From: a virus
Length of the DNA: 64,000 nt
IMG/VR virus record: IMGVR_UViG_3300025168_000039
Location: 32,001-96,000 of that record
Reading direction: 5' to 3' (one strand)
How positions within the stretch are numbered: the first letter of the stretch is position 1; each line of letters starts with the position of its first letter. Below are positions 1,357-56,571 of the stretch, piece by piece. The position numbers and the translations under genes are program-made. Below the pieces are notes generated by a model. It was given only the letters and a program-made list of their open reading frames with translations, ran no database searches and was not told the DNA's origin.

Positions 1357-1847
1357 AAAAGAGATGCGAAATGCAGGGAGCATTATTGTGTTTCCTTCTT
1401 TTATGTGGCATCAAATAACTCCAGTTAAGTACGGCGACAGATATTCTATTGTCTGTTGGTACAAAGGACCACAATTTATGTGAGGGATTATGTTACAGTC
1501 ATTAAAAAATATTACTAAGGATATTAAATTAAAAGAAAAAGAGTTAAGTGGACGACCTGTTGGGATATTCTTATCATCAGCAAAGAGTTCGGAGCTATTT
1601 AACGAACTAAATAAAATAGATGAGCGGTTAGAACAGGACTTAATCTATTATAGAAAAACAATTATAGATATATTAGATGATGTTAATTCTATTAAGTTTT
1701 TAAATTTAAATCAGGAACGGTCCTTAAATAAAGTAGCAACACAATTAAATGTTTTGTTTGACGAAATAACTGCATCGCAGGATTCATAAAATGGATGACT
1801 TAGATATTTTAAAAAGAAATGTACTTGAGTTGAATACACAATTATTT
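1357..1847 (+). repeat. Left copy of 491-bp direct repeat
   Basis: Matches 56081-56571 except A1727 vs C56451. Confidence 0.97.
1490..1789 (+). CDS. Hypothetical protein (inside repeat; duplicate at 56214-56513)
   Basis: 99-aa ORF with GAGGG RBS. Confidence 0.7.
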   Translation: MLQSLKNITKDIKLKEKELSGRPVGIFLSSAKSSELFNELNKIDERLEQDLIYYRKTIIDILDDVNSIKFLNLNQERSLNKVATQLNVLFDEITASQDS

Positions 1848-3019: not shown

Positions 3020-3069
3020 TAATTAAAAAACCTACAGTAAGTTCTTACGAACTGTAGGTTATTTAATTA
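3020..3069 (+). promoter_or_regulatory. Bulged hairpin element (family copy 1) just upstream of the primase RBS
   Basis: TAATTAAA-A-AACCTACA-[GTAA]-GTTC-TTAC-GAAC-TGTAGGTT-A-TTTAATTA. Confidence 0.8.
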
Positions 3070-3082
3070 TAAGGAGAAATAC

Positions 3083-4744
3083 ATGAAGAAAGATGCTAAG
3101 TTTGTAAAGCATGTTAATTGTGATGAGTGCGGATCGTCAGACGGTAATGCCTTGTATGATGATGGTAGTGCTTTTTGCTTTGTTTGTAAAACATATTCAA
3201 AGGATTCTAGTATGCAAGATCAGGAACAAGTTAAACCCTCTAATACTAACCTTAAAGTTTACTCTAAAAACATGACTGAAGATAAAAACTATCAAGATAT
3301 TCCAGACCGCAAACTCACTGCCGCCACTTGTAAAGCCTACGGCATTTCTGTTGTTAAGGATGAAAGTGGAAATATTATTAAACATGTGTATCCTTATTAT
3401 AATACTGATGGTTCTCATGTAGCCAATAAGTTTCGAGTTGTCGCAAACAAAACCTTTCCTACTGAAGGTAACATCGCTAACGCATCTTTGTTCGGACAGA
3501 AAAACTTTCCTGCTAGAGGTAAATACGTTACGATTACCGAGGGAGAGTTGGACGCTGCATCAACATACCAAATGTTTGGTAGTCAGTGGCCTTGTGTTTC
3601 TGTAAGGTCTTCCACTACAGCGCTATCTGATTGTCAAAAGAATATGGATTATCTTAATTCATTTGATACTGTTGTTTTATGTTTTGATAAAGACAAAGCT
3701 GGAAGGGAGGCAGCGAACAAGGTTGCAGCTTTATTCGAGCCTAATAAATGTAGAATTGTAAAGCTTACAACATTTAAAGATGCTTCAGATTATTTGAAGG
3801 CTGGTTGCCGAGAAGAATTTACTAAAGCTTGGTGGAACGCTGAACCCTACACACCCGCTGGCATTATTAATTTAGGTCAGCTAGGAGACTCTCTCTATGA
3901 AGAAGATTTCTGTGAGAGTGTTGCCTATCCTTGGCCTTCTTTAAATGAAAAGACTTTTGGCTGTAGAACTGGAGAGCTTGTGACCTGGACTTCGGGTTCT
4001 GGTATGGGTAAGAGTTCTGTGTTAAGGGAACTTATGCATTATTTTCTACATCATACTAAAGATAATATAGGTATCCTTGCGCTTGAGGAGAACACTAAGA
4101 AGACGGCCTTCAACTTGATGGCAGTGGAAGCTAACCAAAGATTATATATTAAAGAAATTAGAGATCAATTTACCAGAGAACAGATGACTCGTTGGGAGGA
4201 GAAGACTATTGGGACAGGGAGATTTTTCGCTTTTGACCATTTTGGTTCTATATCTAACGATGAGATACTGTCTAGAATCCGGTATATGGCAAAAGCTTTA
4301 GACTGTAAATGGATATTCTTAGATCACTTGTCTATCCTTGTGTCTGGTCAAGAAGATGGGGATGAGAGGAGAGGTATAGATGTTCTGATGACTAAGCTAA
4401 GAAGCTTGGTTGAGGAGACAGGTATATCTTTAAACCTTGTGTCTCACCTACGTCGAGCAAACTCTTCAAAGTCCCACGAAGAAGGTGGAGAGGTTAGCCT
4501 TGCCCATCTTAGGGGTAGCCATAGCATAGCTCAATTATCAGACATGGTATACGCCTTGGAAAGAAATCAACAAGAGACAGATGAGACTCTTGCTAATACA
4601 ACACTTGTTAGGGTTCTTAAAAATAGATATAGTGGTGAGGTAGGTCCATCAACATATCTTTTCTATGATAAAGAGACAGGACGTTTAACCGAGATATCCA
4701 ATCCATTCGAAGTTAGAGAAGAAGAAGAAGGAGAAGCATTTTGA
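3083..4744 (+). CDS. T7 gp4-like DNA primase-helicase
   Basis: N-terminal Zn ribbon CDECGSSD...CFVC, TEGELDA, Walker A SGSGMGKS, LDHL, LRGS, KNRY. Confidence 0.96.
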   Translation: MKKDAKFVKHVNCDECGSSDGNALYDDGSAFCFVCKTYSKDSSMQDQEQVKPSNTNLKVYSKNMTEDKNYQDIPDRKLTAATCKAYGISVVKDESGNIIKHVYPYYNTDGSHVANKFRVVANKTFPTEGNIANASLFGQKNFPARGKYVTITEGELDAASTYQMFGSQWPCVSVRSSTTALSDCQKNMDYLNSFDTVVLCFDKDKAGREAANKVAALFEPNKCRIVKLTTFKDASDYLKAGCREEFTKAWWNAEPYTPAGIINLGQLGDSLYEEDFCESVAYPWPSLNEKTFGCRTGELVTWTSGSGMGKSSVLRELMHYFLHHTKDNIGILALEENTKKTAFNLMAVEANQRLYIKEIRDQFTREQMTRWEEKTIGTGRFFAFDHFGSISNDEILSRIRYMAKALDCKWIFLDHLSILVSGQEDGDERRGIDVLMTKLRSLVEETGISLNLVSHLRRANSSKSHEEGGEVSLAHLRGSHSIAQLSDMVYALERNQQETDETLANTTLVRVLKNRYSGEVGPSTYLFYDKETGRLTEISNPFEVREEEEGEAF

Positions 4745-11249: not shown

Positions 11250-11326
11250 ACTCTCGTAGCTCAACTGGACAGAGCAACAGATTTCTAATCTGTAGGTTGC
11301 AGGTTCGAGTCCTGCCGAGAGTGCCA
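11250..11326 (+). tRNA. tRNA-Arg (anticodon TCT) with encoded CCA
   Basis: Acceptor ACTCTCG/CGAGAGT, anticodon stem ACAGA/TCTGT with loop TTTCTAA, T arm GCAGG-TTCGAGT-CCTGC, 3' GCCA. Confidence 0.95.
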
Positions 11327-11335
11327 GATAAAATC

Positions 11336-11365
11336 TTGACACAAATATAAAAGTGTGAATATAAT
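11336..11365 (+). promoter_or_regulatory. Sigma70 promoter for the glycosylation/terS operon
   Basis: TTGACA-18 bp-TATAAT. Confidence 0.75.
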
Positions 11366-31630: not shown

Positions 31631-32386
31631 CTATGATGTAGCTCCAAAAACATTTCCACTATTTGTTACATTTACTGTTGCACCTGAATTTAATCTAACT
31701 GCTTTTCCTGCTGCTCCTCCTGATCCACCTGAGCCAGCGACTCTACAGTTTGCATTTCCACCAGGACCACTACCACCAGCGCCGCCATTACCTACATTAC
31801 CCCAAGTTCCCCCAGTTCCTCCTGTTGAGGCTCCACCTGAAGAACCACTAGTTGCACTATTTGTGGGAGGATCATTAATACTTGCACCAGCACCTCCATT
31901 ACCTCCTGTTAAATTAGTGCAATCACTACAACTCTGCGCTTCAGAATCATAGGTAGTACAACTACGGTAGCCACCACCACCACCGCCGCCTCCACCACCG
32001 CCAGCAATGTTTGCACCAGAATTATTTCTAACACTTGCTGAAATATTTTCTAAGCTAATTGCATCTCCACCGTCTCCAGCAGCACCGCCATTACTACCAC
32101 TACCACCACCACCACCTGCACTACCTCCTCTACCAATAATATTACCATTATTAATTAAAGTAAAATTACTACCGGCAACAAGATGAGCAGTTAAAGCTGG
32201 TACATTACTAAGCTGACTAAAAACATTTACACCACTATTAACAATAACTGTTGCATCAATAGGGTCTATACCGTTCCAATCGTAACTACCTTGCAACACA
32301 TTAGACAGATTATAATTTTCTGTATCTGAAGATATAATTAATGATTGACCTGTAGGTCTTCTGTTTGCAAAAAATAAAAATGGCAT
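31631..32386 (-). CDS. Polyglycine adhesin, T-even gp38-like
   Basis: LINNGNIIGRGG...GGDAI...NN.GANIAGGGGGGGGGG...GAAGKAV...N.GNVFG. Confidence 0.72.
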   Translation of the reverse strand: MPFLFFANRRPTGQSLIISSDTENYNLSNVLQGSYDWNGIDPIDATVIVNSGVNVFSQLSNVPALTAHLVAGSNFTLINNGNIIGRGGSAGGGGGSGSNGGAAGDGGDAISLENISASVRNNSGANIAGGGGGGGGGGGYRSCTTYDSEAQSCSDCTNLTGGNGGAGASINDPPTNSATSGSSGGASTGGTGGTWGNVGNGGAGGSGPGGNANCRVAGSGGSGGAAGKAVRLNSGATVNVTNSGNVFGATS

Positions 32387-49655: not shown

Positions 49656-49684
49656 ATTATACAGGAGTATATAGATTCTGTCAA
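49656..49684 (-). promoter_or_regulatory. Consensus sigma70 promoter driving the late operon
   Basis: Minus strand TTGACA-17 bp-TATAAT. Confidence 0.85.
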
Positions 49685-49910: not shown

Positions 49911-49950
49911 GAAGATTCTTACAGAATCTATGAAGATTCTTACAGAATCT
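49911..49950. repeat. Tandem 21-bp repeat, each unit palindromic
   Basis: GAAGATTCTTACAGAATCT twice. Confidence 0.85.
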
Positions 49951-50143
49951 TTGGAGATAAAAAGAAATATCACCTTGCAAGGTTTTATTTTTTATATTTA
50001 GAGAGATCAAAGTGATCTCTAAAGATAAAAAATAATATTAGATATCAACCGACTAACTACCAAACCCTGACTGTTGCAGTAATGCAACAACTGATGAGAT
50101 TCGAATAAACTTTGATGAAGTTCTTGACAGTCTATGATGAAAC

Positions 50144-50195
50144 TAATTAATAATCTATCTAGTGAGTTCTTACGAACTAGCTAGATGATTAATTA
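50144..50195 (+). promoter_or_regulatory. Bulged hairpin element copy 2
   Basis: TAATTAAT-A-ATCTA-T-CTA-[GTGA]-GTTC-TTAC-GAAC-TAG-C-TAGAT-G-ATTAATTA. Confidence 0.85.
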
Positions 50196-50216
50196 AAACT
50201 TAATTGGAGCAACCTG

Positions 50217-50384
50217 ATGACCAATATTCAATCCCTCAATTTCTATTTCTCCGAGCTAGACATGGAAGTATCTTCCTTCAATGGAGGTTATGACCTCCAC
50301 AATACAATTACCGGAGACCACATCACAACTTGTGATGATCTATGTGAAGCTGAGTATTTTCTATCTGCCATCCGTCAAAACTAA
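50217..50384 (+). CDS. 55-aa early protein (not in ORF track)
   Basis: GGAG RBS; MTNIQSLNFY...; stop TAA is the first triplet of the next hairpin. Confidence 0.6.
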   Translation: MTNIQSLNFYFSELDMEVSSFNGGYDLHNTITGDHITTCDDLCEAEYFLSAIRQN

Positions 50385-50433
50385 TTAATAATCTACTACT
50401 TAGCTTTCTTTGAAAGCAGTAGATGATTAATTA
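50382..50433 (+). promoter_or_regulatory. Bulged hairpin element copy 3
   Basis: TAATTAAT-A-ATCTACT-[ACTTA]-GCTTTC-TTT-GAAAGC-AGTAGAT-G-ATTAATTA. Confidence 0.85.
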
Positions 50434-50445
50434 AATAACTGGAAA

Positions 50446-50625
50446 ATGATTATGAAAATCCAAATGAATATGCGTTCTGACTATGGTCAGTACCGTTACT
50501 ATCCAGCTTGTGACAAATCAAAGCTCTTAACAGAGCTTACAAATCAAAAGACGTTAACACCTGCCAATATGAGAACTATACAGAAACTCGGCATCGAAGT
50601 TGAAATGCTAAGTCACAAACTGTAA
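50446..50625 (+). CDS. 59-aa early protein (not in ORF track)
   Basis: YG...YYP.C..SK.L......KTLT......IQKLG. Confidence 0.65.
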   Translation: MIMKIQMNMRSDYGQYRYYPACDKSKLLTELTNQKTLTPANMRTIQKLGIEVEMLSHKL

Positions 50626-50626
50626 G

Positions 50627-50683
50627 GGTAATTAAATATATTCTGGTAGACTATCTTAGGATACCAGAATATTATTAATTATC
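50627..50683 (+). promoter_or_regulatory. Bulged hairpin element copy 4
   Basis: GGTAATTAA-AT-ATATTCTGG-[TAGAC]-TATC-TTAG-GATA-CCAGAATAT-TA-TTAATTATC. Confidence 0.85.
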
Positions 50684-50716
50684 TTTTAACCAACCGCCAA
50701 CCGATAGGAGATTATC

Positions 50717-50935
50717 ATGGCAAAACGTACCGAGAAGATTACCCAAGCTTTCCGCAAAACCCGTTGGGTTAAGTTGAAAGAAGGCTATGAAGTTTATAAA
50801 CAAGCCGTCGAAGACGGCCTACCAATCCGAGTAGTTCACCCTTCCGGTTCTTTTAAAGTTATAAAGAACACCGAGAACCTTCCGAAGGAAGAAGGTCTTA
50901 GATTTAAAGCTGGGGAAGTCGAGGCGGTAGCCTAA
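50717..50935 (+). CDS. Early hypothetical protein
   Basis: AGGAG RBS; 72 aa. Confidence 0.7.
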   Translation: MAKRTEKITQAFRKTRWVKLKEGYEVYKQAVEDGLPIRVVHPSGSFKVIKNTENLPKEEGLRFKAGEVEAVA

Positions 50936-50940
50936 CCTCG

Positions 50941-50995
50941 GGTAATTAATAATCCCCTAGTAGACTATAAGGATACTAGGGGATGATTAATTATC
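50941..50995 (+). promoter_or_regulatory. Bulged hairpin element copy 5
   Basis: GGTAATTAAT-A-ATCCCCTAG-[TAGAC]-TAT-AAGG-ATA-CTAGGGGAT-G-ATTAATTATC. Confidence 0.85.
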
Positions 50996-51029
50996 TGAGA
51001 CATTAATAACTTGATTAATGGAGATTATT

Positions 51030-51185
51030 ATGACTATTCCAGATGATATGAACGTACCCTTAAATCGTAGAGATTTAAGTAAACCGGAGAATATTCGTTG
51101 GCTAGTTCGTAATCTAGCAGTCAAAAACAGGGAACATCCTAGCTTTAATAAAATAATCAAAGAGTTAATAAATAGGAGTAAATAA
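51030..51185 (+). CDS. 51-aa early protein (not in ORF track)
   Basis: GGAG RBS; MTIPDDMNVP.NRRD....NIRWL.RNL. Confidence 0.6.
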   Translation: MTIPDDMNVPLNRRDLSKPENIRWLVRNLAVKNREHPSFNKIIKELINRSK

Positions 51186-51503
51186 TATTATGACTTTCCC
51201 AATTGTGGTATCGACAATACTATTTATTGTATTCGTGGGAATAGCATATATACTATACAAAGATATTAAAAAACTTTAGGGTTACGCTAGGCATACACTC
51301 AATATCTGAATACTTTTTAAATGGAGTTTAAAAATGAGTTTAGAGAAAGATGCGGAAAAATATGTGAAGGCTTTAAATAGTCCCGCAAATGGTTGGGGAC
51401 AGTACATCATTAATGGTGAGCAGAGCCATGTATTCTTAGGTAAAATGTTTGAACAATATGGACAAGATGAAGTTAATAACTTTCTAGATAAGGATAATTA
51501 AGC

Positions 51504-52205
51504 ATGTCCACACTATCCCCAGACCATAATGCTATTGTTAATAGCACTACTTTGTACCAGAAAAATATACATGAAGTTGATAGTTATCCACATAAAGTTA
51601 TTAAAGCAAGCACCAATAAGAAGCTTGGCCGAAAAGTATTACGAGGTAAACTAAACGGCTATCCAATGTATACATTGACTTTAGTGGAAAGAGAGACTTG
51701 CACTAATGCTTGTGAGCATTGGGCTGATTGCTATGGGAACAATATGCCATTCGGTCATAGATTTAAAACTAAAGGACTAATGCCAAGGCTCAAGTTAGAG
51801 CTTGATGCTTTAGATAAAAAGCATCCCAATGGATACCTTGTTAGGCTGCACATTCTAGGGGACTTTTACAGTGTTCTATATGTAAAGTTTTGGGAAACCC
51901 AGCTACATAATAGACCGGCTTTAAATATCTATGGATATTCCCGTCATCACTATGGCTCTACTAATACCAGCAAACCATCAAGAAATATTGGACAAGCTTT
52001 GCTTGATCTGAGGGATAACATAGGCTTTGAAAGATTTGCTGTACGATTTAGCTCTCTGCCTTCCGATACCTTATCGGCCAATACAGAACACAACTCGACA
52101 GCTAATGCTATTACTTGTCTAGTACAAGTAGATAAGAGTGATAGTTGTGGTGACTGTACACTGTGCTGGACTACTAAAAAACCTATTACTTTTCTTGATC
52201 ACTAA
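51504..52205 (+). CDS. Gp88-like Cys-rich (radical-SAM-related) protein
   Basis: CxxxCxxxxxCY, RLHILGDFYS, C-terminal CGDCTLCW. Confidence 0.7.
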   Translation: MSTLSPDHNAIVNSTTLYQKNIHEVDSYPHKVIKASTNKKLGRKVLRGKLNGYPMYTLTLVERETCTNACEHWADCYGNNMPFGHRFKTKGLMPRLKLELDALDKKHPNGYLVRLHILGDFYSVLYVKFWETQLHNRPALNIYGYSRHHYGSTNTSKPSRNIGQALLDLRDNIGFERFAVRFSSLPSDTLSANTEHNSTANAITCLVQVDKSDSCGDCTLCWTTKKPITFLDH

Positions 52206-52564
52206 TGCTTTAATAAGGAAAAATTATGGTTAAATTAAATCCTGCTTATATTATTACTGTTGTTTCTTGTTAGGAATATAAAACTATGACAAAATATACC
52301 GAATTAGAACTGAGAGAAGTCATGTTCTACATGGATTTTAAAACAGTTTTAGAGGCTAGGGAATATATGGAAAACAATGACGCTGAATTATCCATTCAAA
52401 ACGAAACGGAATTTCGCCCCGGTAACATGTAACCACATACTTTTAAAGGGAATATAAAACTATGATAAATGTAATTATAAAAGCTACACTTTTAACTTTT
52501 CTTTTAGGAGCAGGTATATTATATTTCGATATGATCTTTAGCACTTCGAATACCCTGTTAACCA

Positions 52565-52616
52565 ATATTAATTATTCTAAGTAGAGTTATCTTACGATAC
52601 TTAGAATGATTAATAT
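52565..52616 (+). promoter_or_regulatory. Bulged hairpin element copy 6
   Basis: ATATTAAT-T-ATTCTAAG-[TAGAGT]-TATC-TTAC-GATA-CTTAGAAT-G-ATTAATAT. Confidence 0.8.
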
Positions 52617-52647: not shown

Positions 52648-52845
52648 ATGTCTTTAACTACCATAATGCAACATGATGTTAAGTCTATTAATACAACGCA
52701 AAGAAATCATCAGGATTTTACAACAGTCTCTGTCCGTTTTGTAACGGAGGAAGGTGACGGCGGAGAAATTACTTTCTTTATAGATAATAAAGAAAATTTA
52801 GATAATATAGACCTAGCTCCTTCCGAGATTATAGTAGTAGACTAA
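52648..52845 (+). CDS. Early hypothetical protein
   Basis: GGAG RBS before ATG 52648. Confidence 0.6.
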   Translation: MSLTTIMQHDVKSINTTQRNHQDFTTVSVRFVTEEGDGGEITFFIDNKENLDNIDLAPSEIIVVD

Positions 52846-53288: not shown

Positions 53289-54251
53289 ATGTTTGATACC
53301 AATAGATTTTCTACATCATCTTTCGCCGCTTCACTTGCTCAAAAAGGGTATAATATGTTAGATCACCTCACCACCACTAATAATCGATCTATCTTTTTTA
53401 AAGTAAATGAGCAACAAGTTTCTGGACATTCTACAGGAACTGTAGCAGAGAAGTACAAGATGCTTTCCCGTGGCACCCCACCCTTGCAACCAGAAGAATG
53501 TTTATCGATAGTTAACAAAAACTATCGTGTGGTAGAAAATGAAGAGATTATTATGCCAATGCAAGAGCAGATGGTTAATCACTTTGATCCCTCTGTTTTA
53601 GCAGACATTCAAATAAAAGATCACATTGCTAAAAATGGTTCTGTATGCTTTGCGGAATACATTTTACCTAAAATGAAAGGTACTGTTGAAACAAAAACAG
53701 GACATAAAACAGAGGTTGGACTTAGATTTATTCTAAAAAATACCTTTGATGGATCGTCAAGTGTTGTGTTCTATGGTGGTGTTATTGACTTCTTCTGCAC
53801 CAATGGTATGATCAGTGGTGAATATGATGTAACAAAGAAACGTCATACTAAAAACTTTAGTGTCGATGGCTTCCTTAGTGCATTTGATAGTGCTATTGCC
53901 CGTCATGGTTGGATGGTTGATAAGTATCAGAAGTGGGCTGACCAAGGGATAAATAATACTATGAAAGTCCAAGAGTTATTTCGTACTCTAACGAGTGGTA
54001 GTACCGACGAACCTAAAAAGAAAAATACTTTATCTGATAGATTGTTTGCTCAATATATAGATGAGACACATGAACGAGGCAGCAATGTATTCTCTTTAGT
54101 ATCTGCTATGACCCACTATGGTAGTCATGGGGATGGTAGGTTTAACTTGCGTAAAAACTCTGGACCTGATACACTGTTTAAGCGTCAACAAAGTGTCAGT
54201 AAATGGATAAACTCTGAGGCTTTTGAAAACTTTCTTGAGGTAGCTGCATGA
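53289..54251 (+). CDS. DUF932-family protein
   Basis: Y.VVEN.E, LKNTFDGSSS, FCTNGMI, RHT motifs. Confidence 0.8.
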   Translation: MFDTNRFSTSSFAASLAQKGYNMLDHLTTTNNRSIFFKVNEQQVSGHSTGTVAEKYKMLSRGTPPLQPEECLSIVNKNYRVVENEEIIMPMQEQMVNHFDPSVLADIQIKDHIAKNGSVCFAEYILPKMKGTVETKTGHKTEVGLRFILKNTFDGSSSVVFYGGVIDFFCTNGMISGEYDVTKKRHTKNFSVDGFLSAFDSAIARHGWMVDKYQKWADQGINNTMKVQELFRTLTSGSTDEPKKKNTLSDRLFAQYIDETHERGSNVFSLVSAMTHYGSHGDGRFNLRKNSGPDTLFKRQQSVSKWINSEAFENFLEVAA

Positions 54252-55646: not shown

Positions 55647-56207
55647 ATGAAAACATACAAAGTCTATGATAGTGCTATAGAAAAAGAACATTGTAATAAT
55701 ATAATTAAGTTTATAAAAGATTTAGATTTAAATAACTCAAAAATAAACGAGGGTGAGGGTGATGTTGTTAACGAAGAAAAGCGGCAATCCCAAACTGCTT
55801 TTTTAAATTCAAAAGAATTTGTAGATATTTTTAGTTTGTATACTGGCTTTGCTAAAGAAGAATGTATGTGGAATTATAATATAACTAATTATGATACACC
55901 TCAAGTAAGTATATATTCTAAGAATGATAAGTACACTTGGCACCATGACATGCTTCCTGATAGTGATGGACTTGTACGCAAGTTGAGTGTATGTATAACC
56001 TTAAATGATAATTTTAAGGGAGGAGACTTTCAGATACAGAAATTTGTTTCTCCAGTTGAGAAGAAAAGATTTACTACAGTAAAAGAGATGCGAAATGCAG
56101 GGAGCATTATTGTGTTTCCTTCTTTTATGTGGCATCAAATAACTCCAGTTAAGTACGGCGACAGATATTCTATTGTCTGTTGGTACAAAGGACCACAATT
56201 TATGTGA
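55647..56207 (+). CDS. 2OG-Fe(II) oxygenase (prolyl-4-hydroxylase-like)
   Basis: Y.WHHD, RKLS, F.GGDF, VFPSF..H..TPV..G.RYSIV.W. Confidence 0.9.
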   Translation: MKTYKVYDSAIEKEHCNNIIKFIKDLDLNNSKINEGEGDVVNEEKRQSQTAFLNSKEFVDIFSLYTGFAKEECMWNYNITNYDTPQVSIYSKNDKYTWHHDMLPDSDGLVRKLSVCITLNDNFKGGDFQIQKFVSPVEKKRFTTVKEMRNAGSIIVFPSFMWHQITPVKYGDRYSIVCWYKGPQFM

Positions 56208-56571
56208 GGGATTATGTTACAGTCATTAAAAAATATTACTAAGGATATTAAATTAAAAGAAAAAGAGTTAAGTGGACGACCTGTTGGGATATTCTTATCA
56301 TCAGCAAAGAGTTCGGAGCTATTTAACGAACTAAATAAAATAGATGAGCGGTTAGAACAGGACTTAATCTATTATAGAAAAACAATTATAGATATATTAG
56401 ATGATGTTAATTCTATTAAGTTTTTAAATTTAAATCAGGAACGGTCCTTACATAAAGTAGCAACACAATTAAATGTTTTGTTTGACGAAATAACTGCATC
56501 GCAGGATTCATAAAATGGATGACTTAGATATTTTAAAAAGAAATGTACTTGAGTTGAATACACAATTATTT
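56081..56571 (+). repeat. Right copy of 491-bp direct repeat
   Basis: Matches 1357-1847 with one mismatch. Confidence 0.97.
56214..56513 (+). CDS. Duplicate of 1490-1789 (N>H change)
   Basis: Lies within the repeat. Confidence 0.7.
   Translation: MLQSLKNITKDIKLKEKELSGRPVGIFLSSAKSSELFNELNKIDERLEQDLIYYRKTIIDILDDVNSIKFLNLNQERSLHKVATQLNVLFDEITASQDS

Follow-up and report, generated by a model that had tools for sequence, protein, structure and literature searches.

Two-turn hairpins between the early genes of a marine podophage: a candidate family of intercistronic RNA punctuation

The stretch of DNA analyzed here (the window) comprises 64,000 nucleotides, positions 32,001 to 96,000 of the IMG/VR virus record IMGVR_UViG_3300025168_000039, and contains six hairpins of 50–61 nt, all on the sense strand and each placed between a stop codon and the next ribosome-binding site. 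These hairpins belong to a genuine family that has not been catalogued so far and occurs fairly widely in uncultured marine podophages, and their structure is under selection. The kind of element is familiar, while this sequence family is new to Rfam. In the reading that we prefer, and to which we give about an even chance, they are two-turn intercistronic RNA hairpins that, by analogy with known phage elements, probably act as substrates of the host RNase III or as 3' caps and additionally serve as junctions for the exchange of gene cassettes. The six copies, with lengths of encoded proteins given in amino acids (aa), are the following:

Hairpin 1: 50144..50195, + strand; first of the array, upstream of the 55-aa open reading frame (ORF) F1; its 5' arm holds a -10-like AATAAT.
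Hairpin 2: 50382..50433, + strand; bulge type with an ACUUA bulge and a GCUUUC/GAAAGC apex; its first TAA (50382–50384) is the stop codon of F1.
Hairpin 3: 50626..50684, + strand; base extended by GGG/UCU; begins one base past the stop codon of a 59-aa ORF.
Hairpin 4: 50938..50998, + strand; the stablest copy with -33.6 kcal/mol; UCGGG/UCUGA extension; follows the F2 gene.
Hairpin 5: 52565..52616, + strand; its 5' arm contains the TAG stop codon (52582–52584) of the upstream 40-aa ORF; followed by GGAG and an ATG at 52648.
Hairpin 6: 3020..3069, + strand; directly upstream of the primase/helicase gene (3083–4744); complete relatives have a hairpin in the same position.

All six elements had been located in an earlier reading of the letters alone (the sequence-only reading), and each indeed folds as a long hairpin, with z values of -5.5 to -8.0, energies of -17.1 to -33.6 kcal/mol and 0 of 200 shuffles folding as well. 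The lower part of the structure is as described there: a basal stem TAATTAAT/ATTAATTA, an A.G mismatch next to it in 3 of the 6 window copies and in 22 of 46 family copies, and a middle stem of 10–11 bp, whose sequence varies from copy to copy with its pairing kept. The usual apex reads GA-GU(A)-UCU(U)-(U)AC-GA. The 5' bulge with C-UUAC-G that had been proposed for the upper part (4–5 nt in our folds) turned out to be one of two registers; the other, which has the minimum free energy, consists of an 11-bp stem, a 2x2 GA/GA internal loop, 2–3 bp and a loop of 3–4 nt, and each register is backed by covariation, in different copies. Stacks of ~22–25 pairs per hairpin correspond to two helical turns. 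None of the six window copies has a U-tract, as had been noted before, and the 3' flanks are A-rich (AAAAC) or UCUGA. Copies 3 to 5 had been said to begin at or just after a stop codon; copy 2 starts on one as well, and in the case of copy 5 the preceding ORF terminates within the 5' arm. The expected ribosome-binding site and start codon were found after every window copy, in the form of a Shine-Dalgarno (SD)-like motif (weak for copy 2) and an ATG within 14–38 nt. Over a length of 11 nt, the 3' arm UGAUUAAUUAA (50188–50200 and equivalents) has one stop codon in each of three frames (TGA, TAA and TAA), the TGA being due to the conserved G of the A.G mismatch. Two covariance models, one of the six copies and one of 46 unique relatives, match only these six elements in the complete record of 106,894 bp, all of them on the + strand.

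Pattern scans and covariance models together detected more than 100 copies of the hairpin in ~50 IMG/VR contigs, always co-oriented with the genes; the orientation is uniform within every locus and the same as that of the flanking ORFs. The exact conserved-arm pattern is present in 15 IMG/VR contigs, compared to 0.08 matches expected by chance according to our own estimate, an apex-based pattern raised the total to 35 DNA stretches, and with the models the first 16 loci yielded 73 copies (47 unique) and the remaining loci further ones. In two near-complete relatives the copies are confined to the + strand early/middle block (16.9–25.1 kb in G002 and 18.8–32.3 kb in G001), and no copy was found in their late genes or in the 35-kb late block. 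The pattern scan of 185,579 bacterial and archaeal genomes gave no copy and thus no host or prophage clue, and a nucleotide search of the hairpin region against 50,697 phage records gave no match. At the gathering threshold of Rfam only a tRNA and no hairpin family matches, and at E values up to 1 just two chance matches to microRNA precursors appear, far under their cut-offs. The checks proposed with the sequence-only reading, covariance models and a comparison with Rfam, have thereby recovered the family in relatives and matched it to no Rfam family.

The claim that covariation points to selection on structure was borne out by the 46 unique (paralogous) sequences, in which pairing is kept in 82.5% of the cells and both sides change in 22 of 26 pairs. 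The covariation score is 0.413, compared to 0.132 ± 0.010 in shuffles and at most 0.096 with slid partners. At the orthologous site directly upstream of F2, six different middle stems are found, each paired bar one mismatch. A role in mRNA is favored because both fold stability and three-frame stops are biased to the sense strand: in 41 of 46 copies the fold of the sense RNA is more stable than that of the antisense RNA (mean difference 3.7 kcal/mol), and stop codons in all three frames are present in 32 of 39 stems in the sense direction, versus 19 in the antisense direction and 18.7 ± 3.0 in composition-matched shuffles. These two asymmetries disfavor the symmetric role as a DNA cruciform that had originally been offered as an alternative. 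An open frame of at least 30 codons ends between -15 and +25 nt from the stem start in 37 of 51 distinct contexts, in 15 of those 37 exactly on the first TAA of the stem, and the SD and start codon of the next gene usually follow 14–47 nt past the stem.

The record holds two syntenic phage gene sets with proteins that are 27–75% identical, apart from a few genes with 89–99% identity. In a self-comparison, homologous DNA is 64–89% identical except for one segment:

491-bp repeat: window 1357–1847 = 56081–56571; 99.8% identity.

Two adjacent primase/helicase genes are located in one half of the record and none in the other half, and complete relatives have sizes of 56,002 bp (with terminal repeats) and 59,958 bp and the gene order array ... 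228-aa gene, 55-aa gene, hairpin, primase. As judged from its sequence, the 106,894-bp record is probably a figure-8 assembly of two phages, P and Q (~52 and 54 kb), joined at the 491-bp repeat, and such a chimera, if confirmed, matters to users of the 107-kb record. In the simplest reading of the figure-8, Q would extend from 1847 to 56081 of the window (~54 kb). All six hairpins are assigned to Q, in which hairpin 6 lies ~5 kb downstream of hairpin 5 within the same + strand early/middle transcription block. Q is only distantly related to known phages; the identity amounts to 39% for the large terminase (with Pelagibacter phage HTVC023P) and to 48% for the primase (with HTVC115P), and such hairpins are not mentioned in a paper on the HTVC023P group. 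No equivalent hairpin family was found in the sister phage P, neither with the models over the record nor in its early region (L002:4100-12700, genome 23,100–31,700). One isolated 15-bp hairpin is present in the early region of P at L002:10575-10610.

To compare the gene content of the arrays, ORFs between hairpins were clustered into families. The following ORFs lie in the array of Q:

F1: 50217..50384, + strand; early ORF of 55 aa, found in those Q-type arrays for which the locus extends over this position.
F12: 50446..50625, + strand; 59-aa ORF, a variable cassette that is absent or replaced in L004, L006, L011 and L007.
F2: 50717..50935, + strand; conserved small protein of 72 aa with invariant residues within PIRVxHPSGSFKV.

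A backbone F1 ... F2 is common to all arrays whose loci reach both genes. Between the two, F12 is found in this phage, L009 and L012, nothing in L004, F17 in L011, F17 plus F44 in L007 and other singletons in L013, and F3 and F9 are located upstream of F1 in some relatives only. In the blastn comparison with L006 (90% identical), homology ends at 50435, the 3' foot of hairpin 2, and restarts at 50613, 16 nt before hairpin 3, with a different 74-aa ORF in between. The early-gene content of relatives, which the sequence-only reading had advised to compare, thus differs at boundaries set by the hairpins, and relatives differ by whole hairpin-bounded ORF units. One hairpin core was found before different genes and with different outer flanks, and a single ORF is flanked by identical hairpins in L012 and L009. 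The clustering of alignment ends at hairpin edges (90 of 235 vs 40.7 expected) lends weak support, since the comparison is confounded by the hairpins being the stretch with the highest conservation.

In our preferred reading, the hairpins would sit in the long early/middle message of a ~54-kb marine podophage that uses the host RNA polymerase. The stem would be cut by the double-strand-specific RNase III of the host, or it would block 3' exonucleases, and the message would thereby be split into units that are separately stable and separately translated, while the three-frame stops in the stem would end the translation of anything upstream. As the comparison of relatives shows, recombination between copies adds, removes and swaps single-gene cassettes, because the same element flanks every small promoterless gene. 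Neither an RNA polymerase gene nor an RNase III gene was found in the genome, and since the phage encodes no RNase III, any cutting would be carried out by the host enzyme. RNase III of E. coli accepts about two turns of double-stranded RNA, so that a near-perfect stack of 22–25 pairs is an expected substrate. Dunn and Studier reportedly described in 1983 that the early mRNA of T7 is cut at intergenic hairpins. This analogy, which the sequence-only reading had drawn, gives the best apparent fit by position and size, but does not extend to any relation in sequence.

Several points weigh against this interpretation. We infer by analogy that the hairpins are transcribed through and cut, and that this affects stability or translation. 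The stems are far more perfect than the T7 sites, and model R2 finds nothing in T7. A conserved apex is not required by RNase III, and yet GUUCU(U)ACGAAC is the best conserved part across clades with differing base stems. Wobble pairs in the main helix are without strand bias (13 G.U vs 9 A.C), and the sister phage P manages without such hairpins. Finally, the copies of the family are paralogues, and therefore covariation cells and counts do not represent independent events.

Such an apex is dispensable for RNase III, which makes a dedicated binding factor a rival to be taken seriously. A trans-acting factor encoded by the phage (for example F2) or by the host may bind the apex (tandem G.A plus GUUC-UUAC-GAAC) and govern the translation, antitermination or decay of the individual cistrons, which we regard as possible, if rather doubtful. 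The conserved apex GUUCUUACGAAC hints at such a factor: GU(G/A)AGUUCU(U)ACGAAC is kept across clades with the differing base stems TAATTAAT, CTAATTAA, CTAAATAATAA, TTAAAAAACC and CCATATAG, and none of the 46 copies deviates in the 3' GA of the apex. In addition, a TCTTAC(A)GA core is common to the hairpin apices and to two small palindromes in the control region (9 sites vs 3.2 expected):

Two mini-palindromes AGATTCTTACAGAATCT: 49913–49929 and 49934–49950, + strand; 21 bp apart, upstream of the early promoter-like site.

The equivalent place in relatives is occupied by AAATCTTACAGATTT, in either orientation. On the other hand, several copies bear other apices (the bulge type; L048 and L055), and a small loop can be presented without a stem of 25 bp. 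Concerning the identity of the factor, a scan based on F2, and therefore independent of the hairpins, found F2 together with hairpins in 28 of 28 loci; model R2 detected them in 26 of these, whereas in L065 the same apex sits on another base stem and L064 contains a separate hairpin family. F2 is also absent from the hairpin-less phage P, but its co-occurrence with the hairpins is confounded by shared descent. The AlphaFold model of F2 (predicted local distance difference test, pLDDT, 72) has a beta-beta-alpha-beta-beta arrangement, and assignment of F2 to a known RNA-binding fold was rejected as there was no PDB match at E ≤ 0.001 and no match to Pfam or Atlas. L064 is a distant F2-bearing contig with unrelated long hairpins near F2 (L064:3481-4606), two of which have common CCTACTACTC...GAGAGTAGT arms while the third is unrelated. 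This contig suggests that the habit of punctuation by hairpins outlives any one sequence family.

It is also conceivable, although we consider it unlikely, that the hairpins are a purpose-built cassette junction, i.e. an orientation-specific linker that ends translation in three frames and insulates cistrons and whose apex is bound by a small phage protein (F2 or another). In that case they would provide these phages with an integron-like system that needs no integrase to acquire promoterless single-gene cassettes and express them. We judge it similarly improbable that the signals act at the level of DNA, where single-stranded or cruciform hairpins would be read by a recombination or replication protein in an active exchange resembling that of integron attC sites or of the promoter-early stem-loops (PeSL) of T4-like phages. 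The hairpin-bounded, cassette-like indels and replacements, the ORF between identical hairpins, the recurrence of the same core in different contexts and a main helix that is 93.5% Watson-Crick and free of wobble bias would all be compatible with such signals, but ordinary homologous recombination between 50-nt repeats suffices to explain the shuffling, the asymmetries in stability and stop codons are specific to the sense strand, and the 35-kb late block is devoid of copies. Furthermore, the tyrosine recombinase PF00589 is absent from the 107-kb record, with control genomes all positive, as is the Y1 transposase PF01797 of REP-associated tyrosine transposases (RAYT), for which reason an assignment to REP/RAYT elements (REP, repetitive extragenic palindromic) was rejected. 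The R''/R' cores RYYYAAC and GTTRRRY of attC sites were not found at the base of the hairpins, which is TAATTAAT/ATTAATTA or another AT-only variant. Of the attC-like cassette shuffling that had been considered from the outset, the hairpin-bounded ORF units are left, whereas the attC reading itself is not supported, given that the genome has neither a tyrosine recombinase nor R/L core boxes.

A function as weak attenuators or factor-dependent terminators, which would generate a falling expression gradient along the early operon, is quite unlikely. The hairpins are stable and located at gene ends, and the stem-loops of PeSL do terminate (PMC2839356), but the absence of a U-tract and the A-rich or UCUGA 3' flanks argue against termination, as do the 5–9 serial copies that precede essential genes (primase, polymerase) without an intervening promoter. 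A canonical, GC-rich terminator is present elsewhere in the phage (7747–7776), and in view of this and of the missing U-tract, identification of the hairpins as canonical terminators was rejected. A sigma-70 promoter inside or after each hairpin was likewise rejected, as the sigma-70 promoter scan revealed no excess and no promoter attached to the hairpins, and an upstream TTGACA is found at just one hairpin per array:

Promoter-like TTGACA-19-AATAAT: 50124..50154, + strand; relatives keep TTGACA-18-AATAAT upstream of one hairpin per array.

The -10-like hexamer of this site sits inside the 5' arm of the hairpin. Hairpin promoters of the N4 type and promoters of the T7 type were rejected because the phage has no RNA polymerase, and a CRISPR-like or guide-RNA array because the hairpins are spaced by conserved ORFs that code for proteins and have ribosome-binding sites. 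Selfish palindromic miniature elements, similar to miniature inverted-repeat transposable elements or REPs, that spread in the operon without a function for the phage would account for the multiple copies, the terminal inverted repeats and the same core in several contexts, but they are very improbable given the lack of a transposase, the strict placement from stop codon to SD, the uniform orientation, the compensatory changes at orthologous sites and the absence of copies from the bacterial and archaeal genomes scanned.

Perfect sigma-70 consensus promoters are present at 49656–49684 (- strand, TTGACA-17-TATAAT), facing the terminase and the late block, and at 11336–11365 (+ strand, TTGACA-18-TATAAT), following a tRNA-Arg(TCT) gene at 11250–11326. 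The early region additionally encodes a GP88-family protein (51504–52205; PF17338, E 1e-5) and a DUF932 protein (53289–54251; E 9e-10), and a gene for a 2OG-Fe(II) oxygenase is located at 55647–56207.

If our preferred reading of intercistronic RNA punctuation is true, the hairpins represent an uncatalogued structured RNA family from widespread uncultured marine podophages that would be suitable for Rfam. The family is a clean test case for the way in which phages insulate and shuffle small accessory genes, and in engineered operons the hairpin might find use as a compact intercistronic insulator.

Among known systems, REP elements and bacterial interspersed mosaic elements (BIME) of enterobacteria are similar in being short intergenic palindromes within operons that are able to stabilize upstream mRNA. 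In contrast to the hairpins of Q, REPs reside in chromosomes, are found in either orientation and are associated with RAYT transposases. The attC sites of integrons share with the present family imperfect hairpins with a conserved base, a variable but covarying middle part and unpaired bases, and they also separate promoterless, co-oriented single-gene cassettes. However, no integrase, no attI and no RYYYAAC/GTTRRRY cores are present here, and the hairpin core follows neither of the neighboring ORFs consistently.

The closest parallels are found in other phages. The RNase III sites in the early and late mRNAs of T7 (R0.3, R0.5, R1, R1.1, R1.3, R3.8, R4.7 and others) are likewise paralogous intergenic hairpins, about two helical turns long and part of a polycistronic phage message; they combine a conserved with a covarying part, they are placed after a stop codon and ahead of the next ribosome-binding site, and one copy lies near the primase gene. 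What the hairpins of Q have in common with the T7 type of signal is, accordingly in position and size, a two-turn intergenic hairpin between a stop codon and the next SD in a presumably transcribed region. Folding of the intercistronic regions of T7 yielded a paralogous family AAGGUC...GGCCUUUAUGAUU with an internal loop, to which the hairpins of Q have no sequence relation, and model R2 gave no match to T7 at E values up to 10. In the T7 sites a large internal loop separates a weak lower stem from an upper stem of 9–12 bp, whereas the present stems are near-perfect stacks of 22–25 pairs in which both the AU-only base and the apex are conserved.

The PeSL of T4-like phages are intergenic repeats that flank small ORFan genes in a plastic early region (PMC2839356, PMC4122927). 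As in the phages with PeSL, close relatives of Q differ by motif-bounded insertions, deletions and replacements, according to array maps and blastn break points. A PeSL is, however, composed of a strong sigma-70 promoter and a GGGG...CCCC terminator hairpin, and therefore each PeSL cassette has its own transcription. In the hairpins of Q, the promoter scan revealed no sigma-70-like early promoter in each element, and with respect to sequence features, the stems are AU-rich, without a poly-G/poly-C terminator stem and without a U-tract. Since the hairpins carry no promoter and no terminator tail, the cassettes of Q are promoterless. The punctuation known from T7 and the modular exchange known from PeSL are usually considered separately; if our reading is true, a single element appears to combine them, for cassettes that lack promoters of their own.

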